From: Candidatus Hermodarchaeota archaeon
Lineage (GTDB): Archaea > Asgardarchaeota > Hermodarchaeia > Hermodarchaeales > Hermodarchaeaceae
Assembly (NCBI GenBank): GCA_016839805.1
Contig: JAEOTO010000032.1
Span: 32,001-96,000 of the forward strand
DNA length: 64,000 nucleotides
Direction of reading: 5' to 3'
Shown here piece after piece: positions 3,283 to 37,711 of the stretch (position 1 is its first letter; every line of letters starts with the position of its first letter). Made by a program: the position numbers and the translations under genes. The notes below the pieces were generated by a model. The model was given only the letters and a program-made list of their open reading frames with translations, was not told the DNA's origin and did not search any database.

Positions 3283-4594
3283 ATGGTAGCAAATGCAGAA
3301 ACCACTGGTACCACTAAATATTGTATTCGTGGGAAAATTGAAATTGATGGAGTAGTAGAAACCCCGGATGTTGTAGGCGCCCTCTTTGGCCAAACTGAGG
3401 GCCTACACTTCATATCATTGATTTGAAGGGGCAATCGGCGAAGATTTGGACCTCAGAGAATTGCAACAATCGGGACGAATTGGTCGAATAAAAGTTGAGC
3501 TGCACTCGGAAAGTGGCAAATCAAAAGGTACTATTACCATTCCATGCAGTCTTGATCGAACGGAAACTGCAATCCTTGCAGCAGCCATTGAAACGGTGGA
3601 CCGCGTGGGTCCCTGTGCTGCTAAGATTACACTAGAAAAGGTAGAAGACGTTCGAGAAGAAAAACGTAAACGCATTATTGACCGTGCTGTAGAACTATTA
3701 CGCGACTGGGAGGGAGAAATCTCCCCAGATTCGCAGGAAATGACCGACACTGTAGTTAGCGAATCCCGTACAGCCGATATAACGAAAATTGGTAAAGATA
3801 GGCTTCCGGCAGGCCCTGATACGCAAAAATCTGATACCATCATTATTGTCGAAGGACGTGCTGACGTACTCGCACTACTTAGAGCTGGTATTAGAAATGC
3901 TGTTGCAGTTGAAGGTACCTCGATTCCAAAATCATTACGCGAAATTATTAACTCAAAAACGGTAATTGCCTTCCTTGACGGAGATCGAGGAGGCGATCTG
4001 ATTCTCAAAGAATTATCTCAAGTCTCGAATGTAGATTTTGTTGCAAGGGCACCTCATGGTAGAGAAGTAGAAGAGCTTACACATAAAGAAATTACCAAGG
4101 CGCTTCGCCATAAGGTTCCTGCTGAACAACTAACTGGGAAACCAAGGAGAAGGAAACCTACAACGACCCCGAGGACAAAACAGCAGATACGTCGGACCAA
4201 ACCACAGAAGACCAAAGAACCGCCTCGGAAGACAAAAACCACTACTACAAAAAGGACTTCACGAGCTAAAGCGATTGAAAAAGCGAAAGTAGAACCAAAG
4301 GAGTTGGGCATTCCAAAACCAGTTCTTGATTCTGCCGAGAAGATACAACAGACTATGATGGCTGTTATTTTTGATGATAATTTCAAACAACTTCAAGAAC
4401 CGCATGTTGGAGAACTAGCAAACGAGTTACAGAAGCTTGACAAAGCAAATACGCTTCTTCTAGATGGCGTGGTTACTCAGCGTCTCATTGATATTGCAGA
4501 GGAACGAGGGGTTAGGTTGATTATTGGTGTTCGTATTGGTAATATTGTCAAGAAGCCTGCAAAAATGCGAATTCATACATTTGATGAGTTATAA
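3283..4594 (+). CDS. dnaG: Archaeal DnaG (exosome-associated, primase-like), split by a 28-nt intron: exons 3283-3406 and 3435-4594, 427 aa
   Basis: GGTGA Shine-Dalgarno and ATG at 3283. [31 protein letters not shown]|[19 protein letters not shown] is restored on splicing. [14 protein letters not shown] and FLDGDRGG. Confidence 0.93.
3407..3434 (+). other. Bulge-helix-bulge intron in dnaG pre-mRNA
   Basis: Central helix GCCT(3401-04)/GGGC(3429-32), bulges AC^A and AA^T, intron stem CTTCA/TGAAG. The unspliced form has a stop codon and a frameshift. Confidence 0.88.
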
Positions 4595-4683
4595 CATGCC
4601 ATCATCCTGTCAAGTCAGCAAGGCTTAAATATCGAGCACTCTCAGGTTCGCCTCGACCCTATCAATACAGTGAGTGTGTTTTC

Positions 4684-4980
4684 GTGGCTGAAACAAATGC
4701 AAAGCTCATCCGAGTCCTTCGAGCAGTCGCATTGCTCTTCCTAGTTGCAGCAGCAGCCCTTATCTTGTTAAACCTGGTTCCCGGTATTTCTTGGGAACTA
4801 CCTTCTGCCGTTGTTTTTTTGGGCTTTATACTCATCGGCGGTCTTAGCTTTGGTATTTCTGGATTGATGTCAGAAAATCCTCAAATAACCCGAAAGTTAT
4901 TCTTTGAATGGCTTATTGTTGTTGCCGTGATTCTCATATGGGTCGTTGGTGTCTATTCTTTACTAATTCCAATTACATGA
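4684..4980 (+). CDS. Small membrane protein, about 3 TM helices, unknown function
   Basis: Hydrophobic ORF directly upstream of atpD. Confidence 0.65.
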   Translation: MAETNAKLIRVLRAVALLFLVAAAALILLNLVPGISWELPSAVVFLGFILIGGLSFGISGLMSENPQITRKLFFEWLIVVAVILIWVVGVYSLLIPIT

Positions 4981-4989
4981 GGTAGCATC

Positions 4990-5643
4990 TTGTCTGAATC
5001 GGCTGGAATCATTGCAGGTGTTCGTCCAACACGAATGGAGTTACTAGCCTTAAAGGAGAGACGTGAACTAGCTGCACGTGGTTATGAACTTCTCCGAGAA
5101 AAACAGGATGCATTGGTCCGTGAATTTTTCGCAATATTATCTGAGGCGAAGAAGTATCGAGAAGAAATGGAAACTACTTTGGCTGAAGCTTTTTCATCGT
5201 TTATGGAAGCAAAATTAGTTGAAGGCGGAGCAAAATTAGAAGAACTATCTTTGGGTGCAAGAAGTCCGATAGATTTTGAAGTTGAAACAAGGAACACGAT
5301 GGGGGTTTCAGTGCCCATATTCCGGATTACACAACAGAATGAAGAACACCACCTACATTATAGTCTGGCCAGTACTTCTGCTGCCGTAGACAAAGCCACT
5401 CAGAAGGTACGTTCAGCCCTCGATAAAGTTGTGCGCCTTGCGGAAATTGAAGCAACAGTCAAACGGCTTGCTGCTGAAATTGAGAAAACAAAACGGCGTG
5501 TAAATGCCTTAAACTACGTGGTTCTTCCCCGAATCAATAATACAATCCGATACATTGAGCTCATGCTTGAAGAGCAAGAAAGAGAGGATCTATTTAGAAT
5601 GAAACGTGTTAAGGCTATGTTGGAACGCAAAGCTCGTATGTAA
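4990..5643 (+). CDS. atpD: A/V-type ATP synthase subunit D
   Basis: RPTRMEL...GYELLREKQDAL...IEKTKRRVNAL. Confidence 0.95.
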   Translation: MSESAGIIAGVRPTRMELLALKERRELAARGYELLREKQDALVREFFAILSEAKKYREEMETTLAEAFSSFMEAKLVEGGAKLEELSLGARSPIDFEVETRNTMGVSVPIFRITQQNEEHHLHYSLASTSAAVDKATQKVRSALDKVVRLAEIEATVKRLAAEIEKTKRRVNALNYVVLPRINNTIRYIELMLEEQEREDLFRMKRVKAMLERKARM

Positions 5644-5648
5644 CTGTC

Positions 5649-6074
5649 TTAGCCTTGAGTAAGAGTAATTATTGCCTTAGCCAGGTTCCCGTCCGTCGCT
5701 CGCAACGCCTCTCGGGCGTCCTCCTCAGAAACATTAGCTTGACTTGCTACTAGTTGAACATCCTCTTCTGTAAAAGATCGAGGAGGAGCTATTGAAGTTC
5801 CTTCTTCAACTGCAGTGGAAGCTGTTATTCCTCTTTCCTCAGATTGGCCTACTATTTGATAAATATCGTCACCTTGTGCTTTCATTAAGAGTACTTGAGG
5901 TTCGGGAAGGATTAATTCTTTGTCAGGAAAACGAATAAGGACCTCTGTGACGTCATCTAATTGTTGAAAATCGACGCCCATGCGTCGCATTTGTCGCTCC
6001 ATTGAGCGCTTCTTTGACTTGACTTTTTTTACTTTTACCAAATTTGATCCCTCATTTTCACAACAAATTCGCAT
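5649..6074 (-). CDS. nac: Nascent polypeptide-associated complex protein
   Basis: MRRMGV NAC domain and C-terminal UBA-like EEDVQLVASQANVSEEDAREAL. Confidence 0.9.
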   Translation of the reverse strand: MRICCENEGSNLVKVKKVKSKKRSMERQMRRMGVDFQQLDDVTEVLIRFPDKELILPEPQVLLMKAQGDDIYQIVGQSEERGITASTAVEEGTSIAPPRSFTEEDVQLVASQANVSEEDAREALRATDGNLAKAIITLTQG

Positions 6075-6090
6075 TATTGATTGACATAAT

Positions 6091-6603
6091 TTAGGTTTTT
6101 CTTTTCTTGCTTGAATGCCGCGTTTTAACAGCTACACCACGGGACAACTCAAGCATTTCTTGAGGACTTAATTGAGCCATCCCCACAGCAAGAAGAGTAT
6201 CTTTGTCATCTACGACAAGGACTTCATCTCCTGCCCGCAAATCGGGATCTACCTCTTTAATGTGTTTAGCAAAAACGCTGCGGCCTTCTTTAATAAAAGG
6301 TGCGATCTCTTGGCTTACAATTACACGAAGCTTCGGGTAGGGAGCTGTTTGATGTAAACGCATAGCACCAGTCATGGTTAAGACAATTCGTCCATCATGT
6401 GCTCGAATAGTAGCAAGAACTTTAGATTCGAGTAACACTCTACGAATTTGACCTGATCTTTTGGAAATCTCTAACTCACAATTATCTGGGAATAGCAGGT
6501 GTCCAATTGAAGAGCTGAATTGATAGTTCGCTATACCTCTTGCCCTAAGCAATGGATCATCAATCTCGATTTGGCTCGCCTCGTCTTTCTTACAATAGAT
6601 CAT
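6091..6603 (-). CDS. PUA-domain RNA-binding protein (similar to the archaeosine tRNA-ribosyltransferase C-terminus)
   Basis: [32 protein letters not shown]. Confidence 0.85.
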
Positions 6604-7814
6604 CCATAAATGTCTGTCGCGTCGCTACGGTCAGCAATGTTGCCTAAAACTTTGGTTATGGCTTTGTTGAAGTCATCCCGGCTAACAACATCCCGAAGTT
6701 CTCGAATAGCGAACATTCCCGCTTCGGTGCAAATTGCTTTTAGATCGGCTCCAGATGCCCCATTTGTTTTGGCGGCAATTAAGCTAACATCTACATCAGA
6801 TTGGATGTTCATATTTCGCATATGAATTTGGAGTATCTGTATTCGAGCTTCTTTATCAGGAAATGGAAATTCGATAATGCGGTCAAATCGTCCTGGTCGA
6901 GTTAACGCATTGTCTAGGATGTCGGGTCGATTAGTGGCAGCGATAATTCGAACATCACCACGAGGATCAAATCCATCGAGCATGCTGAGGAGTTGCATAA
7001 GAGTACGTTGCACCTCGCGATCTCCGCTTGTTGCTATATCGAGTCGTCGACTTGCAACAGCATCTAATTCATCGATAAAAACAATACTTGGAGAACGTTT
7101 ACGAGCCATATAGAAGATTTCTCTAACGATGCGTGCTCCTTCGCCAATGAATTTCTGCACTAATTCGGAACCAATGACGCGAATAAAGGTGGCTTTTGTT
7201 TCATGGGCTACCGCTCGGGCGAGTAGGGTTTTTCCTGTGCCAGGTGGACCACATAAAAGAACGCCTTTGGGCGGTTCAATACCGACTTTTTCAAAGAGCT
7301 CAGGGTGTAGAAGGGGAAGTTCAACTGTTTCACGAATCTCTGCAATCTGCTCTTCTAATCCACCAATATCCTCATACGTAACATCGGGACTTTCTTCTAC
7401 ATTCATAGCCTGAACAAAAGGATCAACCGAAATGGGTAAGACATCTACAACCGCCAGGGTTCGCTGGTTAAGAGCTACTTTCGCTCCAGATTCAAGTTTG
7501 CTTCCAATAATTGATTCGGGGTAATTAACAACGAATTGTGGTCCCGTGCTACTTTTCACAATTACTCTGCCATCACCAAGAACATCGATTACTGTGGCTG
7601 AGACCAATGGAGGTTGTCTTAGCTTATTCAGCTCTGCCTGTAAAATCCGAACTTCATTTTCAAGTCGAGTACGTTCAGCTGTGATTTGTTCCTTTTCGAG
7701 TTCTAACTCACGGACTCGTTGCTCCAATAAGATTGTACGTTCAGCAAGAGACATGTAATCTTCAGGGGAGATCGCTTTTTTACGAATATCAGTGGAATCG
7801 GTCATTGCAAGCAC
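6600..7814 (-). CDS. pan: Proteasome-activating nucleotidase
   Basis: Coiled coil, OB domain and AAA+ module ([21 protein letters not shown]); HbYX C-terminus IYG. Confidence 0.95.
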
Positions 7815-7947
7815 TCTGAGTTAAACGCGCTAAAAGCTTTTTTTATTCCTCCAGTGTTAATATAAAACCTCATTAGGAATCAGTTAGAATGAAAAGATAC
7901 TTTTAGATATTCGCGGGTAAAGTGTTAGATGGTGGCGAAAAAGCGTC

Positions 7948-8448
7948 ATGCCAACCTGTGAGATATGTGGTCGCGAATGCAAGTCAACGAGAGAAATTTC
8001 CCTTGAAGGAGCATGTCTCCAAGCCTGTAGTCGTTGTGCACAGCTAGGAGAACCTGTGCAACGAAGAAAAAAACCAAGCTCTCAGACTCGCCCAATAGCA
8101 AAACCCCGTTCTTCCTCAACTCGATATACCACAGTTCGCCCTCGTTCTCAAAGACGCGAGTTGGTACCGGTAGAAGATTTTACTAAGTTAATTCGAAGGG
8201 CAAGAGAAGAGAGAAAGTGGTCACAAAAAGACGTTGCTAATAAACTCCATGAAAGAACATCAGTCATCACAAAAGTTGAGAGTGGAAAAATGGCTCCCAC
8301 TATCAATCTGGCAAGAAAACTGGAACGCCTGTTTAAACTAACACTTCTTGAAGAAACAGAATCCATTGACCTTTCACCCACTCCTTCACACAGTACAGCA
8401 ACATTGGGAGATGTTGTTCAGATAAAACGAAAGAAACCCAGCTCCTAG
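7948..8448 (+). CDS. mbf1: Archaeal multiprotein bridging factor 1
   Basis: CEICG zinc ribbon and Cro-type HTH, ending TLGDVV. Confidence 0.9.
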   Translation: MPTCEICGRECKSTREISLEGACLQACSRCAQLGEPVQRRKKPSSQTRPIAKPRSSSTRYTTVRPRSQRRELVPVEDFTKLIRRAREERKWSQKDVANKLHERTSVITKVESGKMAPTINLARKLERLFKLTLLEETESIDLSPTPSHSTATLGDVVQIKRKKPSS

Positions 8449-8496
8449 ATTGATCGTAGCCGAGAGAGATACATATTGAAAGGTCGAGATTCCTTT

Positions 8497-9045
8497 ATGA
8501 AACCCCCAAAATGGCGCATAGTTGTATTAAGGCTGGATCATCGCCCTGAACGTGATAAACGAGTAACAACACATATTGGATTAACCGCACGGGCGTTTGG
8601 GGCATCAGGTCTTTGGACGGCAGGATTGAAGGATCTCAAAATTGTTGAGTCAATGAAACAGGTGACTTCACAGTGGGGTTACAAGAGATTTGAAGTCATA
8701 ACTGGAGTTAATTGGCGTCACCGGTTACGGAAGTGGAAAGAAGAAGGAGGTGAAGTTATTCATCTTACGATGTATGGGTTACATATTGACAAGGTAATAT
8801 CAAAAATTGATTCTTCACCTCGAGCTAAACTCATTGTAGTGGGTAGTTCAAAGGTTCCCATTGAGGTTTTCAAAGTTGCTGATTATAACGTCGCTATCGG
8901 TCATCAACCTCATAGTGAAATTGCTGCGCTGGCAATTTTTCTCGACCGACTTTTTCAAGGAAAAATGCTTCATAAAAGGTTTCTTGATGCTAAAATGGAA
9001 ATAAAACCTACAGCAGATGGGAAACGGGTTAAGGAACCGGAGTAA
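8497..9045 (+). CDS. trm56: tRNA (cytidine(56)-2'-O)-methyltransferase
   Basis: VLRLDHRPERDKRVTTH, HLTMYG, QPHSEIAALA. Confidence 0.93.
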   Translation: MKPPKWRIVVLRLDHRPERDKRVTTHIGLTARAFGASGLWTAGLKDLKIVESMKQVTSQWGYKRFEVITGVNWRHRLRKWKEEGGEVIHLTMYGLHIDKVISKIDSSPRAKLIVVGSSKVPIEVFKVADYNVAIGHQPHSEIAALAIFLDRLFQGKMLHKRFLDAKMEIKPTADGKRVKEPE

Positions 9046-9118
9046 TCATGATACGGATTGGGTCCAAGAACTGGATTTTGTGAAACAAAAAGGTCTATAT
9101 TCCATGCCGGAGTAGATT

Positions 9119-9640
9119 ATGTGTAAATCTATGTCTGGACGTGAGATGCTAATTAAGCAGGTTGTCATTGAGTTCGCCGGTGATGACGCATTTGAAGTTG
9201 CGTCGCGTTTGAAAGAGGATGAAGAAACTACAGATGAGGAAATTGCCAATCAAACAGGCATGCGCCTCAATGCTGTTAGGAAAATTCTCTACAAGCTTTA
9301 TGACCTTCATTTGGCGTCCTATCGCCGTACCCGCGATAAAGAAACCGGATGGTTTGTCTATTACTGGATATTAGAGCCGGAACGCATCCATGATCTTTTA
9401 CGCGAGAAAAAAAACAAGGTCCTTGAACGACTAAGACAGCGTCTAGCATACGAAGCAGAAAACACCTTCTACCATTGTAATCATGATGGCTGTCCACGTC
9501 ACACCTTTGATGAAGCCATGACAAACGCCTTCAAATGCCCAATATGTAATAACCAACTTGTCCACGTCGACAATACCCAAATAATCTCGATTCTACGCAA
9601 ACAAATTGAAGTCTTAGAGGAAGATATCAAGCCAAATTAG
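9119..9640 (+). CDS. tfe: Transcription factor E alpha subunit
   Basis: wHTH (TDEEIA...VRKILYKL...GWFVYYW) and zinc ribbon FKCPIC. Confidence 0.93.
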   Translation: MCKSMSGREMLIKQVVIEFAGDDAFEVASRLKEDEETTDEEIANQTGMRLNAVRKILYKLYDLHLASYRRTRDKETGWFVYYWILEPERIHDLLREKKNKVLERLRQRLAYEAENTFYHCNHDGCPRHTFDEAMTNAFKCPICNNQLVHVDNTQIISILRKQIEVLEEDIKPN

Positions 9641-9711
9641 TGTGTGCAAAGAAGGTTTCTTTATTCCAAGGAGACCTTTTTAGGGGAGCATCGAATAACG
9701 GAATTCAAGTT

Positions 9712-9820
9712 GGGCCGATGGTCTAGCTATCTACTGGGATACTCCCCCGGTGGACTAGAAGGTTATGATATCGCGCTTACACCGCGATGGTCGGGGGTTC
9801 GAATCCCTCTCGGCCCACCA
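9712..9820 (+). tRNA. tRNA-Val(TAC) with a 32-nt BHB intron at 17/18 (9729-9760), encoded CCA
   Basis: GGGCCGA/TCGGCCC acceptor stem, TAC at 9778-80, GGTTCGAATCC. BHB with CTAG/CTAG central helix. Confidence 0.92.
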
Positions 9821-9931
9821 TCTTGTTACTCATCTTCACAATCATGATGAAAGACTACAGAGTTTGTCGCTGCCTAAAACCAGCAACATAAACTTATTAA
9901 AGAGCGTTATTTGTACCTGCAACGACCCCGT

Positions 9932-10017
9932 GCCGGGGTATCCTAGCCTGGTAGGGAGCAGGCCTGCTAAGTCTGTGTCCATGGGACTCACGGGTTCGAA
10001 TCCCGTCCCCGGCGCCA
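9932..10017 (+). tRNA. tRNA-Ser(GCT), long variable arm, encoded CCA
   Basis: GCCGGGG/CCCCGGC acceptor stem, anticodon GCT at 9966-68, GGTTCGAATCC. Confidence 0.95.
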
Positions 10018-10564: not shown

Positions 10565-10586
10565 CGCCAAGTTGTGGAAGCTGGTT

Positions 10587-10932
10587 GGACGGTGAGCCTA
10601 GGCGGGGGGCTAGAAGCCCCGCAGCGCCGCTACGGGCTGGCTAAGGCTCCCCTGTACCGCAGATGCTCTATACGGCGGGCTGAATGCCGACACTAGGCTT
10701 TCTGACCTGTTGTACGACTTGCTGTTCGTGGCAGTGACGATCCGCCTCGGAGGATCGCTGGTGGCGGTAGGCTTTTCGTAGGAAGGGCTGAATCGCCTTT
10801 ATCAGGTAAACCCAGCGAGACCCGGGAGGGAGCAGCGTAAGCCTGTACTGTAGATGCTTCCGAGATCCGGGTCCGAGACCTGGCGGTGAGTACGGCATCA
10901 GTGAGGGTTGACGACCGTCGGGGCTCCCGTCC
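10587..10932 (+). ncRNA. ffs: Archaeal SRP (7S) RNA
   Basis: Terminal helix GGACGGtGAGCC/GGCTCCCGTCC, Alu-like CTAGGCGGGGGG...CCCCTGTA, helix 6 with GTAG tetraloop, helix 8 CCC-GGGA-GGGAGCAG, followed by a T tract. Confidence 0.92.
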
Positions 10933-19045: not shown

Positions 19046-19483
19046 TTATTCGAGTTTAAGGTCTTTCCGAAACTGCGGTTTTCCTTTTACCGTTGGTGGA
19101 GCAACATAGTCAATAACATCCTGCAAATTATTTGCTTGGATTTCAACTCGTATTGGACCCATACCTGAGACGTCATTCTCATCAGAAAGATGAAACCGAT
19201 TCATGAAAGCGGCTTGGCGTTGCATCCAAAAAACCAACGTATCATTTTGAAGAGATTTCATGAACCGTTGTCTAACCGCCTCTAAAATGCGCTGCTCACG
19301 AAACTTCTTAGCCAAAGTAGTAATGGACTCAGACCCTGTGGCAAACCCCTTTAATATTGTCCGATTTTTTGAACCCTTGTCCGCATCTATAGTAATCGGA
19401 GGGCACAGATTTTTGAAGGCTAACTTAACCTTTTCTAAATCCTCGGTCGGTTTGATATCCGCCCATAATCTGAAATGAATTAT
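19046..19483 (-). CDS. UPF0201/DUF54-type RNA-binding protein, probable ATA start at 19483
   Basis: Frame extends upstream as IIHFRLWADIKPTEDLEKVKLAFKNL; also EQRILEAVR, RQAAFM, GPIRV. GGAGG 8 nt before ATA. Confidence 0.75.
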   Translation of the reverse strand: MIHFRLWADIKPTEDLEKVKLAFKNLCPPITIDADKGSKNRTILKGFATGSESITTLAKKFREQRILEAVRQRFMKSLQNDTLVFWMQRQAAFMNRFHLSDENDVSGMGPIRVEIQANNLQDVIDYVAPPTVKGKPQFRKDLKLE

Positions 19484-23030: not shown

Positions 23031-23163
23031 GGGCCGGTGGTCTAGATCCCACTCGGCAAACGCCCATGGCTAGATTGGTATGATGCCTGCCTGGGGCGTG
23101 GTTTATCAAAAAGGTAAATCCCCTATCAGGTGATCCCGCGTTCAAATCGCGGCCGGCCCACCA
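23031..23163 (+). tRNA. tRNA-Pro(GGG) with two 28-nt BHB introns (23048-23075 in the D-loop; 23099-23126 at 39/40)
   Basis: GGGCCGG/CCGGCCC acceptor stem and CCA. Splicing both BHBs gives the anticodon arm CCTGC-CTGGGGC-GCAGG. Confidence 0.88.
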
Positions 23164-28085: not shown

Positions 28086-31000
28086 AGCGAAGAATTCCGG
28101 GTCGGGGTGAATAGATTTCTCCTTCTTTGACTAATTGATTTATGGCTTCTTGAACAAACGTCTCTGAGAGATTCGCGAGTTTTGCCCGTTCCATTAATTT
28201 CTCAATAGGCACGCCAGTAGGAGATTCTTTAGCGAGATCTCGAATCATCATCAAAATCGCTCGTAGTTTTTCACGCTGTGATCTGGGGCGGCCAATCATA
28301 ATATTATCAACATCATATTCTCCAGTTTCATGGTCGAAGCCAACCTGTTGGAGTGAAACTTGGACCAAACGAATCGCAGCCTGCGCATCCTCAACGATGA
28401 CTTTTTCCCGTAACGCCATTTTCGCATGGGCCTCAGCCAACCGAATTAGCGATTCCAGTTGACGGGCTGTAATTGGTACAGGTGCATTTTCCCGTTCGCC
28501 AGATTTTCGCATCCCAAGATAGAACTCCTTCACCACATTCAACGCCTCATCCGTTAGCTCAGGACTAATACTCCGACGCGCAAAGGCAATATACTTCCGA
28601 AGCAACTCACCCGGAATCGGCGGATCCTTCACACCGCCTCTTTGCTTATGCAACGCAATAATATGCTCCGCCGTCCGCTCATCCCTCTCCGATTCCGGCA
28701 AATCAGTCAACGTAAAAATCAGATCAAACCGCGACAAAAGCGTCACCGGCAAATTCACATTCTCCGCAAACGACCGCTCCGGCACATACCGCCCAAGATT
28801 CGGATTCGCCGCCGCCAAAATCGCCGTCCGCGCATTCAACGTCGCCACAATCCCCGCCTTGGCTATACTCACGGTATGTTGTTCCATCGATTCATGTATA
28901 GCCGTTCGATCTTGAGGACGCATCTTATCAAATTCATCAATACAGTTGTGCGTGATTAAGCCATCAGCAAGAAAGTTATGCGTTTTGGGGACGTAGAGAT
29001 CGTAGACTGGTCCGATGTAAGGTATTTCTTCGATTGACATTATTGGATCTAGGAAATAGTCTCGTTTCAGAAGATTATTGATTATTTCATGTTGGGATAA
29101 GGAGAGTTGGTTTTCTAAACGTGTTTGGATTTTTTGTAATTGTCCTCTACTTGGCGAATAACGTTGATGTTTATAGCTGTATATAGTACTCCAGAGCCCC
29201 TTCTTTATCAACATTGATGTATTCAGTTTTGAGATCTGAGTAGCTAGCTGTGCAACAGTCTTACTGGGGATTTTGTCACTTAAACTAGACAGCGTTCGTT
29301 TTGGCGAGGGGAGGGGTTTCACTTTTACACTAAAGGGTTTAATTGCAGAAAGTAATGCTTCAACATCTGTCCTAGCAGTTATTTGGATATGGATAACCCC
29401 ACGTCCCGGTTTAAGACGTCCATAGCAATCGAACCGTCTCAGGGCGAGAAGCAATGCTAGATTTTCACGCCGGTCATTAGAGCACTGAATATCAATATGA
29501 ACCGTATTATATTCAGAACTATTGCGGGTATCCCGTTTAATTTCGATACATCCATCAGAGTCTACAATTCCTGCAAGATATGCAGAAAGTGAGAGATCAG
29601 GCAACTTGTGAAGATTTGAAAGATGATCTTTTGTTAAGAAATTGAAGATGAGAGCAAGGAGGTTTGAATGAGCAGTTAATGTTAGAGAATTACTTAGAAC
29701 TATACGATCTTCGATTTTGTTTTTGGTTACACGTGGATAAATTCTTAGTGAACGATTTGAGAAAGTGGAATAAAATTCTTGTATGCGTTTGATTTGGGCT
29801 TGATTCACAATAGATTGACGAATAGGTAATACTGATCGCCGATTATTAATTCGTTCCCAACTATCTCCGAACACAAACCCGAAGAAATAGGCCATTTCAG
29901 GTGTAATTGTTGAGACTTTTAGCCGATCACCCTTATGTTTCCGTCCGAAGGATAAATTACGTTTCTTCCAATCTTCAAGAAGACCAAGGTATGCCAATAT
30001 TTCGCGTAATGAACTAACCTTCATTTGAGAACGGCCAGATAAAACATCTCTTCGTAACCCAAAGAACCGGTTTATGCTCGCAAGAGATGGAAAGTCACAC
30101 AAAAGTGCATCCCGTAATTCGGTTTTCTCAGATTTGTTAAGGCACACAATCCAATCATCTGGAATTATATCGAATATTTGAACTGGATTCTTATGCCCTG
30201 GCAATTTGAGAGGTGCGATTAGAGAGTCACCCGTTTTAAAGTTCTGTGCCATCTTCCAGTCTAGTGAAGCTCCATCTAATAGCATATGATCGGGCGTTAA
30301 TATTGTTTGAAATCCAGTTTCGGTCGTAATTTTTAGGAGTGCATCTGAACATTCTTTTTTGCGAATATAAGTCGACTTGCACTCAATTATGTCTAAACTT
30401 TTTGTAAGCGAAGGAACCTTGGCATCAATCTCCCCAATCATAACTTTTTTTCCATTCGATATGGCACTCTTGGGGGTAGTTGTTGTATAGGCTTCTTCTA
30501 TTGTCATTAATTGATTATTAATCAAGATACGAGAACTGGGATGAAGGCACGCGGTTCCGCGATCGGCGAGTACGAGGGCACCGGCTTCGAGGGCGAAGCC
30601 TTCGGTATCTGGATCTCGTAACACTGCGGCGGTTAACCCGGCTGCAGTGGAACCTTTACCTGATGTGTATAATCCGCGTGGAGCAATTTGGGCTACATAC
30701 TTGAGAAGTTGTGATTTTGCGGTTCCGGGGTCCCCTACGAGGAGGATGTTGGAGTCGCCGCGGATTTTGACGCCGTCGGCGAGGACTTTGCTGACGCCTC
30801 CGAATAGGAGGAGGCTGATTGCTTCTTTGATGTCGGTGAGGCCGTAGATGGAGGGGGCGATGGAGTTGACGAGTTTGCGGTGTACTAGGGGGTCTTTGGA
30901 GAGTTTGAGGATTTCTTTTTCTTCTTTGGGAGTGATTTCGACGCGGTCGGCTTCGCGTTCGGAGACGGCGATGTAGTTGGTGGCGAGGAAGACGCTAAAT

Positions 31001-31755
31001 GTGGGGGCTTTTCGGCGGGATCTTGCGGTGACGTCTTGGGTGGAGCGTAAGATGCCGACGACGCGGCAGGGGTCGCCTGGTCGTGCGGTGTCGACGATGT
31101 CATCTTGGAGAATGCAGTCGAGGGCGCGTGGGAGGGCTCCAGGGGGGAGTTCTTCGGGTTTTTCTTGGAGTCGGATTTTTTGCCAATCAACAAACTTGGA
31201 CCGTTCGGGTATGAGTTCAAATGGTCCTTTACTTCGGCAGGTGTCGTTAGGACAGGTTGTGGGGGTGACAAATTGGTTGCCTTGTGGAATGGGACCTATG
31301 AGGTCTTGGCATTGGCGGCATTTGAAGAGGCCTTCGACGAGAAGGGGTTTAACGTCACTAACTCGAGTTACTAATGCATCAACCATAATGAGTTGGCTGA
31401 TATTTTCTGCGCGAATGGTTCGTACGGAAACGCGATCAGGAACTTCTTTGAAGCGTGCGTGAAGTTTTTGCGTAATTGTAGTTTCATAGTAATCTGGATC
31501 AACGATGCGGAGTATTCGTTTAATGGCAGCTGAAGCTGCGTCTATTGCCTGTTGAGGTTTTTCTTTTGTAGCAGCAGCTAAATCAGGATCAAAAGTTAGA
31601 AGATGGTTGAAATCAACTGAGATGGAAACGAGTTTTTCAAGACTTAGTCGTGATATGGCATCGTGGTAAGGAGTTTCGCCTTCTTCGGTTTTATAGGATT
31701 TGAAAAATTCTTCAAAGCGGGTGATGTAATCAATTTCTTCAGTCACCAATTTCAA
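28072..31755 (-). CDS. mcm: MCM replicative helicase containing an intein
   Basis: Zinc finger, GDPGTAKSQ, AAGLTAAV, CIDEFDKM, LLSRFD, TARQLES. Confidence 0.96.
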   Translation of the reverse strand: MKLVTEEIDYITRFEEFFKSYKTEEGETPYHDAISRLSLEKLVSISVDFNHLLTFDPDLAAATKEKPQQAIDAASAAIKRILRIVDPDYYETTITQKLHARFKEVPDRVSVRTIRAENISQLIMVDALVTRVSDVKPLLVEGLFKCRQCQDLIGPIPQGNQFVTPTTCPNDTCRSKGPFELIPERSKFVDWQKIRLQEKPEELPPGALPRALDCILQDDIVDTARPGDPCRVVGILRSTQDVTARSRRKAPTFSVFLATNYIAVSEREADRVEITPKEEKEILKLSKDPLVHRKLVNSIAPSIYGLTDIKEAISLLLFGGVSKVLADGVKIRGDSNILLVGDPGTAKSQLLKYVAQIAPRGLYTSGKGSTAAGLTAAVLRDPDTEGFALEAGALVLADRGTACLHPSSRILINNQLMTIEEAYTTTTPKSAISNGKKVMIGEIDAKVPSLTKSLDIIECKSTYIRKKECSDALLKITTETGFQTILTPDHMLLDGASLDWKMAQNFKTGDSLIAPLKLPGHKNPVQIFDIIPDDWIVCLNKSEKTELRDALLCDFPSLASINRFFGLRRDVLSGRSQMKVSSLREILAYLGLLEDWKKRNLSFGRKHKGDRLKVSTITPEMAYFFGFVFGDSWERINNRRSVLPIRQSIVNQAQIKRIQEFYSTFSNRSLRIYPRVTKNKIEDRIVLSNSLTLTAHSNLLALIFNFLTKDHLSNLHKLPDLSLSAYLAGIVDSDGCIEIKRDTRNSSEYNTVHIDIQCSNDRRENLALLLALRRFDCYGRLKPGRGVIHIQITARTDVEALLSAIKPFSVKVKPLPSPKRTLSSLSDKIPSKTVAQLATQISKLNTSMLIKKGLWSTIYSYKHQRYSPSRGQLQKIQTRLENQLSLSQHEIINNLLKRDYFLDPIMSIEEIPYIGPVYDLYVPKTHNFLADGLITHNCIDEFDKMRPQDRTAIHESMEQHTVSIAKAGIVATLNARTAILAAANPNLGRYVPERSFAENVNLPVTLLSRFDLIFTLTDLPESERDERTAEHIIALHKQRGGVKDPPIPGELLRKYIAFARRSISPELTDEALNVVKEFYLGMRKSGERENAPVPITARQLESLIRLAEAHAKMALREKVIVEDAQAAIRLVQVSLQQVGFDHETGEYDVDNIMIGRPRSQREKLRAILMMIRDLAKESPTGVPIEKLMERAKLANLSETFVQEAINQLVKEGEIYSPRPGILRFAGS
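28945..30549 (-). mobile_element. Intein (535 aa) with LAGLIDADG endonuclease, inserted just before the MCM Walker B motif
   Basis: LADRGTA|CLHPSS...LTPDH...LAGIVDSDG...NFLADGLITHN|CIDEFD. Confidence 0.93.
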
Positions 31756-32296
31756 TCTCCAAAACTTGTGTTTGCCAATTTCGTAGAAGAGTAACTAATC
31801 GGTCAAAAAGCCAACGTTCTTCGCCGGTCATTTTCTTTTTGATATTGCGTAAGCGTTCTTCGCGTAGAGATAATTTCATTAGTTTCAATAGTCTATTTGA
31901 GATTAAGTCACGCATTAACTGTTCTATTTTACTTTGGGCAGCTAATCGGATATCATTTGGTTGGTCTCTATTCTGTAGGGCTAGTTGCTCTATACGTTTT
32001 CGAACTAGGTAATAAAAATCAGAGGGAAGCGATTGAAGAACCGGCTCTCCGGCTTCTTGCCACAAAGATTTCTGGAGATCAGGAACATTAATTCCTGTGT
32101 CCTTTAGGTGAGCAGAGTTAGTGGAAATAAGTATATTAGCAATCCAACGAGGGACTGTTAATTCCCTGCCCTTTTCAACAGGACCGTAAGTAGAGTCTTG
32201 GATTTCGAATGCTTCGAGGGATTTGTTAGCGATTACCGTAACTGGAACGTTTTCGAAGTGAAAACTAAGAGTGCTGTTCATGTTTTGATCAGACAT
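31739..32296 (-). CDS. GINS complex subunit (Gins23-type)
   Basis: N-terminal B domain (VPRWIANIL), LPSDFY, RLLKL, MTGEE; lies directly upstream of mcm. Confidence 0.8.
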   Translation of the reverse strand: MSDQNMNSTLSFHFENVPVTVIANKSLEAFEIQDSTYGPVEKGRELTVPRWIANILISTNSAHLKDTGINVPDLQKSLWQEAGEPVLQSLPSDFYYLVRKRIEQLALQNRDQPNDIRLAAQSKIEQLMRDLISNRLLKLMKLSLREERLRNIKKKMTGEERWLFDRLVTLLRNWQTQVLEIEIGD

Positions 32297-32324
32297 TTTT
32301 ATTCCAATGCTTCCTGGATTTAAT

Positions 32325-33530
32325 TTAATCAATATTATCTCCTACGGATTTCCGACGTTGGAGAATTTCATTTACTCGTTCATCAAAAACTTCAACGGGA
32401 ATATCCATAAGAGTCAAACGCGCCCGCCGACCGCGACGTCCTTCACCAATACCTTCTACGACCTTTCCAATTATCCCTAGTGTTACAAGGGCATCAATGG
32501 TTTTTCTGAAAGTGGGTAAGGCTTGTTTTGTAACTCCAATTTCTTCACAGAATAACTGATAGTTGGAATAGACCTTAGCGATAGTCGTTGAGCTTGCTTT
32601 ATCAACTTTAAGCGTTCGTGCAATTGCAGCTAGTACTAGTATCTCTTGGTCGCGGAGGCCGTAGAGAACATCCGAGCGAAGTTCTGAGTACACTTCCTGT
32701 TTTGCTCTTCGAATTAAGTCTGGCGTAATAGGACGAACATTGAATCGATCAGCAGCTTTTCCGGCCCAGTATAACATTTCTATTCCATGACGAGCATTTT
32801 GTGTCGATGCTGCAATATTTGCCACCATACTAAGAATATCATTAGTTATCACGTCTTTATGGAAAGCGAGGGTAGACCGGAATTTGAAGATCTTATACAG
32901 TTCCTCTTGAGTATAGGAGGGCATGTCAATTCTATCGTGGAGCCGTCCTGAAAGGGGAAAACTGAGGGTGTTTTGCCAATCTACTACTCGACAAGCAATG
33001 AGTGTAGAGATATATGCTTGACCATGTTTAGCAACTTCACTGGCATGAATGAGGCTAAGTAAGTCTTGTCCAAGCAGATAGGCTTCATCGAGGCAGAGCA
33101 CCAATCGAATGTTTTCGCGTGAAAGTCGACGATTAATCATCGTAGTGATTTCTTCGTCTGAAAATCCACGACTTGTAACTTTGAACCGTTCTGTCAGTAA
33201 ATCACGCAGAATTGCGCTTTTTGTTCGAAACATAAAGCAGTCGTAGTATTCAAACTTGACTTTGATGTCACGTTTAGCAGCGGCTTTTTCCAGGCCACGT
33301 CCAAAATACCGGATGGAAACGGTTTTTCCTGTCCCTGGTTTTCCTACAACAGCTACATTAACAGCGTAAGCTGCATCCTTATTTAGTAATGGTTTGAAAT
33401 CGTGACTTAGACGAACAAGTTGGTCTTCACGATTAGGCAGCTCAGGAGGGATAAAAGCGGGATGAAGGGTTTCTTCATTTTTGAAGACTGACGCGCCTAA
33501 TAATGCCTTTTCAATGATATTCTCGCCCAC
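32325..33530 (-). CDS. cdc6: Orc1/Cdc6 replication initiator
   Basis: P.ELPNREDQ, GKPGTGKT, LCLDE, C-terminal wHTH ending GRRGR. Confidence 0.9.
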   Translation of the reverse strand: MGENIIEKALLGASVFKNEETLHPAFIPPELPNREDQLVRLSHDFKPLLNKDAAYAVNVAVVGKPGTGKTVSIRYFGRGLEKAAAKRDIKVKFEYYDCFMFRTKSAILRDLLTERFKVTSRGFSDEEITTMINRRLSRENIRLVLCLDEAYLLGQDLLSLIHASEVAKHGQAYISTLIACRVVDWQNTLSFPLSGRLHDRIDMPSYTQEELYKIFKFRSTLAFHKDVITNDILSMVANIAASTQNARHGIEMLYWAGKAADRFNVRPITPDLIRRAKQEVYSELRSDVLYGLRDQEILVLAAIARTLKVDKASSTTIAKVYSNYQLFCEEIGVTKQALPTFRKTIDALVTLGIIGKVVEGIGEGRRGRRARLTLMDIPVEVFDERVNEILQRRKSVGDNID

Positions 33531-33658
33531 GTGCGCACCCTCGGATAAGTATATGTAAGAAGGCTAGCCGCTTCACTGCACGAACAGAAGTTGCTGCCCA
33601 TAAAAGGATTTTCCACACTACGATAAAAGTAACTAGCACTCAGCGAATATACGGCTTG

Positions 33659-33889
33659 CTACTTCTTTCGTTTGTCCTTCTCTTTCTTGCCAAGCCACCA
33701 GTCAAGATAATCACGGCGTCGCTGGGATTTTGCGCGTTCTTCATCCTCACGACGAAAGGTAGATCGCTGCTCGTCCCATAAACGATCGAGCTCTGCACGC
33801 GAGACTGCCAGGCCACACCGTTTACACACTTGACGATTGGTTTTATAATCGAATTTCATTGTCCCTGCGCATTCAGGGCAGCGTGCCAC
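33659..33889 (-). CDS. Small zinc-ribbon protein of unknown function
   Basis: CPEC...CKRCG and a charged tail with YLDWW. Confidence 0.7.
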   Translation of the reverse strand: MARCPECAGTMKFDYKTNRQVCKRCGLAVSRAELDRLWDEQRSTFRREDEERAKSQRRRDYLDWWLGKKEKDKRKK

Positions 33890-33950
33890 ATTTTTTCACC
33901 TATTGTGTATCCTGATGGGACTAACTAACCGAGTGCTTTAACTCTTTGTG

Positions 33951-35783
33951 TTAAAGTACTGTGACAGCTTTGGCGAGATTCCTTGGTTGATCAGGATTAT
34001 GACCCCGAAGGATTGCAGCATAGTATGCCAATAGTTGAAGGGGAACTACATAACAGATTGGAGAAAACAGAATAGAAGGGAGAGGAGGTAAAGAAATAGC
34101 GTGATCACTTAAGTTAATGAGTGTTGTGTCTTGAGCAGAGCAAATAGAGATGATTTGAGCACCGCGTGCTTTCATTTCCATGACATTTCCTTCTAAATGC
34201 CGACGGGTTTTGTCATTGGGGGCTACAAAAACTATTGGGAATCCTGGTTCCACCAGCGCGATGGGTCCATGTTTTGATTCCCCTGCGGGATAACCTTCTG
34301 CATGGACGTAAGCAATCTCTTTAATTTTCAAGGCGCCCTCCAAGGCAGTGGCAGTACTTATTCCCCGACCAAGAAAGAAGAAATTTGATCTCGTTATGTA
34401 TTCCTGACTGGCGTCTTTAATTGCATTCTCTTGATTTCGAATGATTATTTCTATGAGTTCCGGGAACTGGTTCAGAGCGGCAAGCAACTCATTTTTTTCT
34501 TTGATTGTTTGAGCACCTGTGAGCACGCCTAAATATGTTGAAAGAGAAGCGAGAGTAGCTAATTGTGTTGCAAAGGTTTTCGTAGCTGCAACACCAATTT
34601 CGGGTCCCGCCTGTGTATACACAACATGATCCGCCATTCTTGTGATTGAGCTGCCTACCGTGTTGGTTATGGCCAACACGGTACTTCCCTGTTTCTTGAG
34701 GTGTTTAACGGCGTGTAGTGTATCAACGGTTTCACCTGATTGGGTAACTGCTAACACCGCAGTATCTTCTCCAAGACTGGACGCCACCGTATCTGTTCCT
34801 TCTGAAGCAATAACGTCATGCACAAGGAAATTTGATATTTGTGAAAACATGTATTTGGCTGCTAATGTGGCATGATAGGATGTTCCCGCAGCGACTGTTA
34901 TTACTTTCTTATGGTTATGAAGAACATCAGCAAAATTTTCAAAATCTGATTTCTTCATTCTGAGTGTGTCACGTATTGCCGTGGGTTGTTCATGGATTTC
35001 TTTTAACATGAAGTGTGGATAGCCACCTTTTTGAGCCATATCGATAGTCCATTGAACTTCAGTTGGTATCCGTAATGGAAGGCGGGTTGGGGACCCATTT
35101 TCATCAAGTCGTGTAAGAAGTGCACCGTTAGCGGTTAGGTGGACTAATTCATTGTCCTCTAATACAATGGTTTTCCGGGTCATTGGTAAGAAAGCGGGAA
35201 CGTCGGAGGCACAATAAATTCCTCGTTGACCAAGACCAATTACTAAGGGACTTTCTTTCCGTGCACATACCAATTCATTGCCCTTGGCTTCTAGTACGAC
35301 TATTGCATAGCTTCCTTCTAATTTTGGAAGTACTCGTGCTACTGCATTTTCAAGGCGTGAAGTATGATTAAGGGCATCTTCGATGAGATGGGGTATTACT
35401 TCTGTGTCTGTCTGAGAGCGAAATTGGTGACCCCCCTCAAGGAGTATTTGGCGGAGTTCTTGGTAATTTTCAATGATGCCATTGTGCACCACCGCAATTC
35501 GATCATAACAATCAGTATGAGGATGAGCATTGAGTTTTGATGGAGGTCCATGTGTTGCCCAGCGTGTGTGGCCGATTCCTATACTCCCAGGGAGGGTATC
35601 GAAATTTATTTGTTGGTGGATTTCATCAATCTTACCTTTGTCCTTCTTTATGAAAATGACTCCATTGGCTGCTGTGGCAATACCACTGGAATCATAACCG
35701 CGATATTCTAATCGTTTCAAGGATTTTCGTAATAATGGCGCAACGTTTCCTTTCATGTGAATAGCGCCAATAATTCCACACAC
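33951..35783 (-). CDS. glmS: Glutamine--fructose-6-phosphate aminotransferase
   Basis: MCGIIG, RGYDS, GHTRWATHG, PRNLAKAVTV. Confidence 0.97.
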   Translation of the reverse strand: MCGIIGAIHMKGNVAPLLRKSLKRLEYRGYDSSGIATAANGVIFIKKDKGKIDEIHQQINFDTLPGSIGIGHTRWATHGPPSKLNAHPHTDCYDRIAVVHNGIIENYQELRQILLEGGHQFRSQTDTEVIPHLIEDALNHTSRLENAVARVLPKLEGSYAIVVLEAKGNELVCARKESPLVIGLGQRGIYCASDVPAFLPMTRKTIVLEDNELVHLTANGALLTRLDENGSPTRLPLRIPTEVQWTIDMAQKGGYPHFMLKEIHEQPTAIRDTLRMKKSDFENFADVLHNHKKVITVAAGTSYHATLAAKYMFSQISNFLVHDVIASEGTDTVASSLGEDTAVLAVTQSGETVDTLHAVKHLKKQGSTVLAITNTVGSSITRMADHVVYTQAGPEIGVAATKTFATQLATLASLSTYLGVLTGAQTIKEKNELLAALNQFPELIEIIIRNQENAIKDASQEYITRSNFFFLGRGISTATALEGALKIKEIAYVHAEGYPAGESKHGPIALVEPGFPIVFVAPNDKTRRHLEGNVMEMKARGAQIISICSAQDTTLINLSDHAISLPPLPSILFSPICYVVPLQLLAYYAAILRGHNPDQPRNLAKAVTVL

Positions 35784-35842
35784 GTTAGTTCGCCTCTATG
35801 AACCAATTCGCAATGATTGAAGAAGTTTCCCATTAGGGTCGC

Positions 35843-37438
35843 TCATAGAAGTTTTGTCATATAAGGACCATCGTAATTGTATCCATGACGTGTGTAATAT
35901 TGCCTGGCTCCAATACCACTCGTGCACACAATCCGATCACGCCCCGCGTTTCGGGTATATTCCTCTGCAGCCTCGAGGAGCAGTGTCCCAATGCCACGAT
36001 GTTGCCAAGCATTATCTTGTATTGTCCCCAGATCAACTGATAATCCATACACATGAAGCTCGCGGATTATTGCAGTGTTAAAGGATTTAATTTCCGCACG
36101 GTGGGCTGTGTCACTTGGTATTCGAAGGCGAAGATACCCCACTAATGCGTCTGAATCGGGGTTTTCATATGCAAGGAAGAATTCCGTCCCATTAGAAGCA
36201 GGATATTGATCAACCAGAAAGTCTAATGATTTGATATCGGGAACCTCGGGTGTTGGATAACCACGAGATCTTTGTTTATATCCCACCTCTCGAAAACGAA
36301 TTGTTTGTAGTTGATTACCCTTTTCTTCGGCACGTTGGAAGACCAACTGTGTCAGGTTACCTAGATTTGGTCCTGCAACTATTAGCCGTTTAGGGATGTC
36401 ACGTTGCATCCGTTGAATTCGAACCCACCGAGGAAGGGAAGGTAGTATCTCAGCAAGAAGATCGATAATCTCCTCATTAGTGTAGGGAGTGTACTCTCCT
36501 CTTCGCCAGATATCAAATAGAGTACTTCCCCGAACTACTAGGCATGGATATATTTTCAACAAGTCAGGTTGAAACTCTTCACGTTTGAACAACTCACGGA
36601 AGACCTGCTGATCTTGTGAGGGGGTACTGCCTGGTAATCCTGGCATTATATGGTAGCAAACCTTAAGACCAGCATCTTTGGCATTCCGTGTTGCCTTGAT
36701 GACGTCGGAAACAGTGTGGCCACGACAAATTTCTGTGTAGATTTCATCATAGATAGTTTGAACGCCTAATTCGACTCTAGTTGTTCCAAGATCTAACATT
36801 TTGTCAACATGGTCAGGTGTACAATAATCGGGTCGAGTTTCAATTGTTATACCGACGGGACGAATGGCACTTCTTTCTGCCGATTTTATAGCCTCAGCCA
36901 GATTTTTCGCATTCATTCCATTCATGGCATCTAAACAGCGTTTAATGAAATTCTGTTGATATTTGTTAGATGCTGCCAGAAACGTACCACCCATTATGAT
37001 AAGCTCAACTTTTTCTATACTATGTCCCATTGCTTGGAGCTGGTCCAACCGGCTCTCTACTTGAAGATACGGATCATATTGGTTTTGTCTTGCGCGAAGA
37101 GTCGCAGGTTCCTCTCCAACATAAGCTTTAGGAGCCGTGGGGATGTTAGTGGGACAGTAAATGCATTGACCTGGACATTCCATTGGCTCAGCCATTACAG
37201 CAACAACTGCCACACCTGATAAGGTGCGAGTTGGTTTCTTTCGTAAAATAGTACTGACTTTTTCTTTCTCGTCTTTGGTTGCGTAACTAAGAATTTCTAC
37301 ATCAGACGGGAACCGGGAGAGTTTATACTGACGACACAATTTTCGTTTCAGACGCTGAAGATCGTTCTTATTACTCACTTTCCCCTCTAATGCAGCTTGA
37401 AGAATTGCTTCTGCAACACGTTCCAACTCAGCGTCCAC
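35843..37438 (-). CDS. elp3: tRNA uridine(34) acetyltransferase Elp3
   Basis: CPGQCIYC, ETRPD, RIQRMQRDIP, WQHRGIG. Confidence 0.95.
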   Translation of the reverse strand: MDAELERVAEAILQAALEGKVSNKNDLQRLKRKLCRQYKLSRFPSDVEILSYATKDEKEKVSTILRKKPTRTLSGVAVVAVMAEPMECPGQCIYCPTNIPTAPKAYVGEEPATLRARQNQYDPYLQVESRLDQLQAMGHSIEKVELIIMGGTFLAASNKYQQNFIKRCLDAMNGMNAKNLAEAIKSAERSAIRPVGITIETRPDYCTPDHVDKMLDLGTTRVELGVQTIYDEIYTEICRGHTVSDVIKATRNAKDAGLKVCYHIMPGLPGSTPSQDQQVFRELFKREEFQPDLLKIYPCLVVRGSTLFDIWRRGEYTPYTNEEIIDLLAEILPSLPRWVRIQRMQRDIPKRLIVAGPNLGNLTQLVFQRAEEKGNQLQTIRFREVGYKQRSRGYPTPEVPDIKSLDFLVDQYPASNGTEFFLAYENPDSDALVGYLRLRIPSDTAHRAEIKSFNTAIIRELHVYGLSVDLGTIQDNAWQHRGIGTLLLEAAEEYTRNAGRDRIVCTSGIGARQYYTRHGYNYDGPYMTKLL

Positions 37439-37507
37439 CTACTAATTGCACCTAAATAATCGTTAACCCTAGAAGAGATCCCTAATCTCAACTAAGGAAA
37501 ACCAATC

Positions 37508-37711
37508 CTACCTTCGAGCAGCTTTGGGTTGTCCAGCAGGAGTACCTCTTAGGATACGTTTCGCATAATTTCGACGATTGCGTAGCCGAGGAATCGGAGT
37601 AACACGAACCTTGCCCTTTACTTTGGGCGTCTGACTCCGAACCTTACCAGCTTTTTTACTCGACTAAAAGGACATCTTCTAGCCCGTAAGCGAGCCGTGA
37701 GATCCGGGCAT
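37508..37711 (-). CDS. rps30e: 30S ribosomal protein S30e, split by a 30-nt intron: exons 37711-37686 and 37655-37508, 57 aa
   Basis: Spliced product MPGSHGSLT|KAGKVRSQTPKVKGK...RNRRNYAKR. Absent from the ORF track because the intron carries in-frame TAG stops. Confidence 0.92.
37656..37685 (-). other. Bulge-helix-bulge(-like) intron in rps30e pre-mRNA
   Basis: Minus strand: GCTT-AC^G-GGCTAGAAG-ATGTC-CTTTTAGTC-GAGT-AA^A, a 4-bp central helix and 9-bp intron stem. Confidence 0.88.

Follow-up and report, generated by a model that had tools for sequence, protein, structure and literature searches.

Can the coding sequence of an archaeal gene be interrupted by an intron of the tRNA type, and can this befall several genes of one genome? 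The question is raised by a window (the whole stretch of DNA that was analysed, 64,000 nucleotides (nt) in length) from a Candidatus Hermodarchaeota archaeon (GCA_016839805.1, contig JAEOTO010000032.1; C22:32001-96000 of the genome with the handle G000), in which short inserts break the reading frames of dnaG, for archaeal DnaG, and of rps30e, for ribosomal protein S30e. The five inserts found in this window are very likely archaeal bulge-helix-bulge (BHB) introns, two of them inside the coding sequences of dnaG and rps30e, and the mRNAs of these two genes almost certainly have to be cut and rejoined by tRNA-splicing enzymes. The parts of the two genes are as follows, in window coordinates.

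dnaG exon 1, 3283..3406, plus strand: from the ATG at 3283, 41 codons and the first base of a split Leu codon; NF003108 positions 1-30
dnaG predicted intron, 3407..3434, plus strand: 28 nt, phase 1, frame-shifting, with a TGA at 3424; its removal gives an open reading frame (ORF) of 428 amino acids (aa)
dnaG exon 2, 3435..4594, plus strand: Toprim domain, stop codon included; NF003108 positions 32-419 (E = 2.3e-136) and Toprim families
rps30e exon 1, 37686..37711, minus strand: from the ATG at 37711, MPGSHGSL and two bases of a Thr codon; identical to the uninterrupted genes of relatives
rps30e predicted intron, 37656..37685, minus strand: 30 nt, phase 2, with two in-frame TAG stops; an exact insertion relative to the genes of relatives
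rps30e exon 2, 37508..37655, minus strand: KAGKVRSQ...ARR and the stop codon

Read without excision, the dnaG frame encodes the conserved N-terminus of archaeal DnaG, runs into HFISLI and stops, and the remainder of the gene lies in another frame. Excision of 3407-3434 joins the two segments of the NCBIfam model NF003108 (archaeal DnaG), and the only model position missing between the exons is the split Leu codon, C|TC. Excision of 37656-37685 yields an S30e of 57 aa, MPGSHGSLTKAGKVRSQ..., with the signature HGSLTKAGKVR restored; its second exon matches positions 8-52 of 58 of Pfam Ribosomal_S30 and positions 9-44 of 52 of NCBIfam NF006817. An earlier note on this DNA had claimed that both mRNA inserts block translation unless removed, and this is what is found, the dnaG frame reaching its stop after HFISLI and the S30e insert holding two TAG codons. 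Neither gene contains any other lesion. A tblastn search of the whole genome with each spliced product returned no second copy of dnaG or rps30e, and the intact paralogues that the earlier note had considered were therefore not encountered in this genome.

The other three inserts interrupt two tRNA genes, which were located by reading the GC-rich islands of the window.

tRNA-Val(UAC), 9712-9820, plus strand: a 32-nt insert at 9729-9760, D-loop position 17/18
tRNA-Pro(GGG), 23031-23163, plus strand: 28-nt inserts at 23048-23075 (D-loop position 17/17a) and 23099-23126 (position 39/40)

All three positions are non-canonical. ARAGORN detects neither gene before removal of the inserts and draws complete 77-nt cloverleaves for both after it; ARAGORN and Rfam find no tRNA genes in the unprocessed window other than a complete tRNA-Ser(GCU) and part of one near 9747. 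The earlier description of five BHB-type introns of 28-32 nt, two in protein genes and three at non-canonical tRNA positions, thus agrees with both the coordinates and the restored products.

The five inserts, all of which lie at coordinates stated before this analysis, obey a single cut rule. On the 5′ side, the exon ends in a 4-nt strand and two further bases, the cut follows, and one intron base precedes the inner hairpin; on the 3′ side, the intron ends in the 4-nt partner strand and two bases, after which the second cut falls. A 4-bp helix and a strict 3-nt 5′ bulge are present in all five. In dnaG, the central helix is formed by 3401-3404 (GCCU) and 3429-3432 (GGGC), with AC|A and AA|U as the bulges and CUUCA/UGAAG as the inner stem; the BHB fold is the minimum-energy structure, occupies 64% of the ensemble and has z = -3.2. 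The corresponding elements of rps30e are a central helix GCUU/GAGU, bulges AC|G and AA|A, and an inner stem of 9 bp. For the tRNA inserts, the motifs are CUAG.CU|A ... CUAG.AA|G with a 9-bp inner stem (tRNA-Val), CUAG.AU|C ... CUAG.AU|U (tRNA-Pro, D-loop) and GGGG.CG|U ... CCCU.AU|C (tRNA-Pro, 39/40). Among the introns of this genome, the first two bases of the 3′ bulge are AA or AU in nine of ten.

The relatives searched were 19 genomes of the order, of which G001 is the closest to this genome, and a closed Odin-like genome of 1.42 Mb (G019), taken whole, served as outgroup and reference. In the survey of relatives foreseen in the earlier note, every family genome with a dnaG gene, 18 in number and from two genera, has the insert at an identical site and with a length of 28 or 29 nt, and the insert occurs with sequence variation in 16 named GenBank assemblies from several studies. 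Across the 18 genomes, the flanking codons vary only synonymously and the loop of the insert varies freely. When 16 genomes are aligned, 100% of the cells of the central helix and 95% of those of the inner helix are paired, and three pairs of the inner helix have changed on both sides; only 1 of 500 shuffles reaches the covariation score, and pairing drops to 34-52% once the partners are slid. The covariation and pairing therefore show selection on an RNA structure across the exon-intron border. Exon 1 is kept in frame despite the frameshifting insert that follows it. The public DnaG entries retrieved for the Hermod family (P0003-P0035), 377-411 aa in length, have artificial N-termini; they are read-throughs of the intron in the frame of exon 2 (e.g., ...GVIGEDLDL) and are without the invariant FGQTEGLLG motif.

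The S30e insert is found in this genome and G001 only. The Odin-like outgroup, 13 further members of the genus and three genomes of the second genus have an uninterrupted gene with the same amino acids at the junction. The insert of G001 differs at two bases, one in the loop and the other in the inner stem, where a G.U pair has become G-C through a U-to-C change. On these comparisons, the S30e insert is evidently a recent, base-exact gain. The interrupted S30e gene is invisible to gene callers.

Which enzymes could remove such inserts? Two genes with the endonuclease catalytic fold (PF01974) are present in this genome. The alpha subunit, of 186 aa and encoded on contig C26, can be aligned along its whole length to 3P1Z_B, the catalytic subunit of the Aeropyrum pernix heterotetramer (E = 1.7e-45), ungapped through the loop YGKPLGIRKPKTTEFDRP, and contains the crenarchaeal loop (GIRKPKTTEFDRP) and the catalytic Tyr, His and Lys residues. 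The beta subunit of 198 aa (C22:24204-24800), encoded 7 kb before the window, retains the fold and is without the His, like structural beta subunits. The predicted splicing endonuclease is therefore of the two-subunit (alpha-beta)2 type with the broad-specificity L1 loop. This loop has been linked to broad specificity (PMC5829648, PMC2724299), relaxed motifs of the kind described here are cut only by broad-specificity endonucleases (PMC5829648), and Asgard archaea had been inferred to have (alpha-beta)2 enzymes with an L1 loop (PMC5829648), with which the EndA genes of this genome agree. The gene rtcB (C22:7173-8483) adjoins that of archease (C22:6594-7007), and an intron-bearing tRNA-Ser(UGA) gene stands side by side with the two (C22:6363-8483). 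The broad-specificity endonuclease proposed in the earlier note thus has its counterpart in encoded (alpha-beta)2-type subunits with the crenarchaeal loop, accompanied by RtcB and archease.

The established biochemistry of archaeal EndA and RtcB is the basis of the proposed pathway. In the pre-mRNA, the four exon bases before the two-base overhang would pair with the four intron bases before the last two of the intron, and the fold would present two bulges, one on each side of the 4-bp helix. The (alpha-beta)2 endonuclease would cut after the second base of each bulge, RtcB, aided by archease, would ligate the exons, and the intron would probably be circularised. Full-length DnaG or S30e would be encoded by the spliced mRNA only.

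A contig from a relative within the family bears on this pathway. L271 (JGI sample 3300036486, contig Ga0395754_008471, 1524 nt) lacks exactly the 28-nt dnaG insert, at the predicted junction: its DNA reads GAGGGCCTAC|TCGGTGAAGAT, and its protein P0053, found by a search of public proteins with exon 1 as the query, encodes ...FGQTEGLLGEDLDL... contiguously. In a 74-kb genomic contig of the same species from another sample (3300042731; protein P0036), the DnaG of which has 99.65% amino-acid identity to that of L271, dnaG is called as two ORFs of 49 and 369 aa, with a spacing 28 nt longer than in L271. The latter spans only dnaG and about 100-120 nt on each side and is absent from the metagenome DNA collection that was scanned. 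Most simply, L271 would be an mRNA-derived contig. A search of public proteins with exon 2 returned only unspliced read-throughs. A metagenome scan for the spliced dnaG junction gave two matches, which were set aside as unrelated archaea (45% identity) having the same motif codons.

The earlier note had also expected further intron-split genes in this genome, and five more introns were verified, all with the same cut rule.

Actin intron 1, contig C32: 28 nt; restored junction APPE|RMYSVWIGG
Actin intron 2, contig C32: 30 nt; restored junction FQRM|WVTKKEY
EF-2 paralogue intron, C22:180577-180607: 31 nt; GGGG.AA|...CCCC.AA|
Rab-like GTPase intron, contig C17: 32 nt, with a central helix of 3 bp plus A.C; junction FTDTY|KMTIG
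cbf5 intron, contig C9: 42 nt, in frame, with a stop; motif I junction INLD|KPPGPTSHE

As read from the assembled sequence, there are at least seven coding-sequence introns in six genes of this Hermodarchaeota genome. The idea that several housekeeping mRNAs are affected stands as far as the number of split genes is concerned, but several of these genes are not housekeeping in the strict sense. The distribution of the introns among relatives is graded. That of cbf5 is present in all 13 other genomes of the genus with a match and in none of four in the second genus. The EF-2 paralogue intron is seen in six genomes of the genus and is deduced from undiminished match lengths in five more, one of them in the second genus; its central helix GGGG/CCCC alternates with GAGG/CCUC among genomes. 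Both actin introns occur in this genome only, six relatives being uninterrupted, and so does the Rab-like GTPase intron, the closest homologue being uninterrupted in G001 and 12 others, with the reservation that the Rab locus of G001 is only 81% identical and its orthology uncertain. For actin and the Rab-like GTPase, the amino-acid sequence predicted after splicing is the same as that encoded by the uninterrupted genes of relatives. This nested presence and absence indicates that such introns are still being gained in this lineage.

Several actin-like C-terminal segments stand in tandem at C32:35353-40277, and one end of contig C9 (C9:1-219) carries a fragment with 95% identity to the intron-bearing actin gene; these point to a second copy or strain heterogeneity. 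At cbf5 (C9:52109-52450), the frame that contains TruB_N is 836 aa long and bears no resemblance to Cbf5 past ...GTYIRKLC; this downstream part could be due to a further intron, an inserted domain or a fusion.

Several observations weigh against the view that these inserts are introns. The motif itself is frequent by chance: a scan for the geometry on both strands of the 2.31-Mb genome gave 198,525 matches, or about one per 23 nt, and a count of the matches that bridge ORFs showed no excess over controls in which the 3′ or 5′ cut was shifted by 1-2 nt. The combination of motif and ORF bridging was accordingly rejected as a census method, as a filter without power against shifted-cut controls. 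The single geometry claimed in the earlier note, a 4-bp helix with a cut after the second bulge base, holds throughout, but the 3′ side is relaxed in both mRNA introns, in which the outer exon-exon helix is weak; in the minimum-energy fold, the 3′ outer side of dnaG is a 2x2 internal loop, and the 3′ cut of S30e falls in an A-rich loop. Furthermore, the minimum-energy fold of S30e takes a shifted register, UUAC/GUAA, the BHB register being an alternative conformer. L271 has about 100 nt upstream of the ATG and could instead be a rare intron-less DNA allele, and nothing close to a spliced form of the EF-2 paralogue was found in public proteins with the kind of search that had yielded P0053. Finally, we infer cleavage and ligation in this genome from the established EndA and RtcB biochemistry. 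The significance of the inserts comes not from the motif alone but from the exact restoration of function, the covariation and the presence or absence in relatives.

Any explanation has to accommodate the anatomy of the inserts, the exact restoration of the products, a structure-preserving evolution, the single-copy status of the genes, the presence of the enzyme genes and the nested presence and absence among relatives. It is very unlikely that the inserts are small mobile or repeat elements that fold by chance and either inactivate the genes or are removed by another route. Such elements would account for the recent look of the two actin inserts and the Rab-like GTPase insert, confined to this genome, and of the S30e insert, shared with the closest relative. 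However, a search of this genome shows every insert sequence to be unique, with no repeat family and no consistent target-site duplication, the lengths of 28-42 nt are far below the size of group I or group II introns or any coding capacity, and the oldest insert, that of dnaG, has been retained family-wide. Even less can be said for the interrupted genes being decaying pseudogenes, with the function carried by other copies or dispensable, which we regard as highly improbable. The genome is about 87% complete and a second copy might be unassembled, and for actin there is the second-copy fragment at the end of C9; for dnaG and rps30e there is no such fragment, and tblastn gives one copy of each. 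The protein of dnaG exon 1 is kept, with synonymous changes across 18 genomes, in spite of the frameshifting insert, the helices of that insert are kept by compensatory changes, and no further lesion has accumulated in dnaG or rps30e.

Retention of the inserts in the mRNA, with the ribosome skipping them by translational bypassing or programmed frameshifting (cf. phage T4 gene 60), would be in keeping with the fact that both are stable hairpins with stops near the take-off point. This explanation is nevertheless extremely improbable: matched take-off and landing codons are absent (CUA C|...|UC GGC; AC|...|A AAA), the three tRNA inserts of the window share the geometry and cannot be bypassed, the covarying helix includes the exon-intron central helix of the BHB and not only the hairpin, and the insert is physically absent from L271. 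As for assembly or sequencing artefacts, the genome is a metagenome-assembled draft in 50 contigs, and the earlier note had raised this worry. It is not borne out, since the inserts recur in independently assembled genomes: the dnaG insert, in variant forms, is seen in the 16 named assemblies, which come from several studies, as well as in 18 species-level genomes, and a second genome has the S30e insert with two bases different. Artefacts would, moreover, neither follow the geometry of a splice motif nor repair frames to the base, and the chance that the inserts are artefacts is practically nil.

If the inserts are BHB introns, how many genes do they split? A homology-guided census with the closed Odin-like genome as the reference recovered three cases: dnaG, the EF-2 paralogue and the Rab-like GTPase. 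Short exons (S30e and actin) and the in-frame cbf5 intron escape it, which corresponds to a sensitivity of about 3/7. Beyond the known cases, true cuts in this census score like shifted controls. The number of intron-split genes in the genome looks like a handful to a few tens rather than hundreds. Some candidates were rejected. An amino-acid-kinase-like paralogue on C29 (about 19175-19225, minus strand oriented) has a 1-2-nt frameshift and not a clean BHB intron, and a GHMP-kinase-like paralogue at C26:50300-50700 (plus strand) has two breaks with ambiguous BHB boundaries, again not a clean intron; decay of the paralogues or errors of assembly may explain both. At the C11 locus, a FeoB-like GTPase contains an in-frame protein insertion of 63 aa and not a BHB intron. 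A tblastn scan for in-frame stops was dominated by antisense ORFs, and actin intron 2 was its only real case.

Is this kind of insert restricted to the family? A wider survey of dnaG, in a sample of 150 Asgard genomes, finds BHB-type inserts of 31-40 nt in three other Asgard families (f9, f3 and f7; L075-L082, L090-L094 and L068). Their site, FGQ|TEGLL, precedes that of the Hermod family by two codons, their geometry is the same (GGNC.AA|...), and the third base of the Gly codon covaries with its partner in the central helix. In family f9 the insert is polymorphic, some genomes being without it. The inserts at the two sites could represent one intron that has slid or independent gains at a hot spot. 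In the Odin-like genome, actin carries a 34-nt BHB insert (PERMYS|VWIGG), a radical-SAM gene is split within CxxxCxxC, a kae1-like gene is split within GPGLGPCLR, and one further gene has a 29-nt insert; the BHB-type inserts of this genome span 28-34 nt and lie at the following 0-based coordinates.

535633-535667, plus strand: BHB-type insert
827297-827326, plus strand: BHB-type insert
565455-565484, reverse-complement coordinates: BHB-type insert
622705-622733, reverse-complement coordinates: BHB-type insert

We are moderately inclined to the broader view that Asgard archaea in general use mRNA splicing by the endonuclease and RtcB as a layer of gene expression, and one that is still expanding. 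On this view, conserved motifs of core and eukaryote-like genes (dnaG, actin, small GTPases, EF-2, kae1 and radical-SAM enzymes) would have received tRNA-type introns time and again, some of the introns being fixed family-wide and others gained within a species-level lineage.

Several other features of this window and genome can be added. The window has a GC content of 42.6%; its DnaG is 95% identical to that of a metagenome-assembled genome labelled Hermod_104, and after it come relatives under the labels Hermodarchaeota or Promethearchaeota. The gene for signal recognition particle (SRP) RNA, at window positions 10590-10929 (Rfam RF01857, 109.8 bits), has a 33-nt insertion in the first hairpin loop, at about 10614-10646, of which a 27-nt segment obeys the same cut rule (CUAG.AA|...CUGG.CU|); in 17 family genomes, the insertion is constant in length and almost so in sequence, and it is compatible with either a helix expansion or an intron. 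At C22:264781-264858, ARAGORN reports a tRNA with the anticodon CUA, labelled Pyl, and it gives several implausible intron calls in this genome, such as a SeC tRNA with a 1193-nt intron.

What do these introns add to those already known? The dnaG intron is fixed family-wide, others are so recent that only this genome or its closest relative has them, and inserts of this kind also interrupt dnaG in three more Asgard families and, in the closed Odin-like genome, actin and three further coding sequences (radical-SAM-like, kae1-like and one unidentified). If the introns are real, the gain of mRNA introns would be directly observable in the lineage closest to eukaryotes, and the question would arise of how a cell that has no nucleus keeps unspliced transcripts from being translated. 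Because the N-termini of DnaG are spurious and S30e is uncalled, estimates of completeness and comparisons of the eukaryote-like proteins of Asgard archaea would also be biased. If the broader view is correct as well, many mRNAs of the closest archaeal relatives of eukaryotes would already have required the removal of introns after transcription, and intron-split genes would be systematically mis-annotated in public Asgard proteomes.

Besides a 5′ untranslated region (UTR) intron in Haloferax, cbf5 was the only reported archaeal coding-sequence BHB intron (PMC7714728, 2020). No report of Asgard mRNA BHB introns was found in the literature searched, which had subscription journals outside its scope; heavy tRNA intron loads have been described for Asgard archaea with no mention of protein-gene introns (PMC11291895; bioRxiv 10.64898/2026.10.13.758758). 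The closest known system is the crenarchaeal cbf5 pre-mRNA intron (Watanabe 2002; Yoshinari 2006; Yokobori 2009, PMC2738675), which is likewise small, protein-free, located in a coding sequence and flanked by a BHB, is served by a heteromeric (alpha-beta)2 endonuclease with the crenarchaeal loop, and shows gain and loss among related species. Here, in contrast, the phylum is Asgard (Hermodarchaeota), the hosts are dnaG and rps30e, several genes are affected per genome, and splicing is deduced. The non-canonical and multiple tRNA introns of Thermoproteales and Asgard archaea (PMC11291895; bioRxiv 10.64898/2026.10.13.758758), to which the three tRNA introns of the window belong, are alike in motif, length (about 20-40 nt), D-arm positions, repeated independent gains and enzyme set, but those studies cover tRNA genes only.

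The 5′ UTR intron of Haloferax volcanii HVO_1309 (Schwarz 2020, PMC7714728) resembles the present introns in making an mRNA the substrate of the tRNA-splicing endonuclease. It differs in lying in an untranslated leader and in being cut by a strict alpha′2 enzyme, whereas here the reading frame is broken and the motifs are relaxed. In eukaryotes, HAC1/XBP1 mRNA splicing proceeds by IRE1 cleavage and, in metazoa, by RtcB ligation. Short mRNA introns are there excised independently of the spliceosome, with a tRNA-type ligase and a change of frame; however, the endonuclease is the eukaryotic IRE1, the recognised stem-loops are of another kind, and the role is regulatory. Collectively, the intron is of a known kind, that of cbf5, and what is new is its host genes, its lineage, the number of genes and a visibly ongoing gain.

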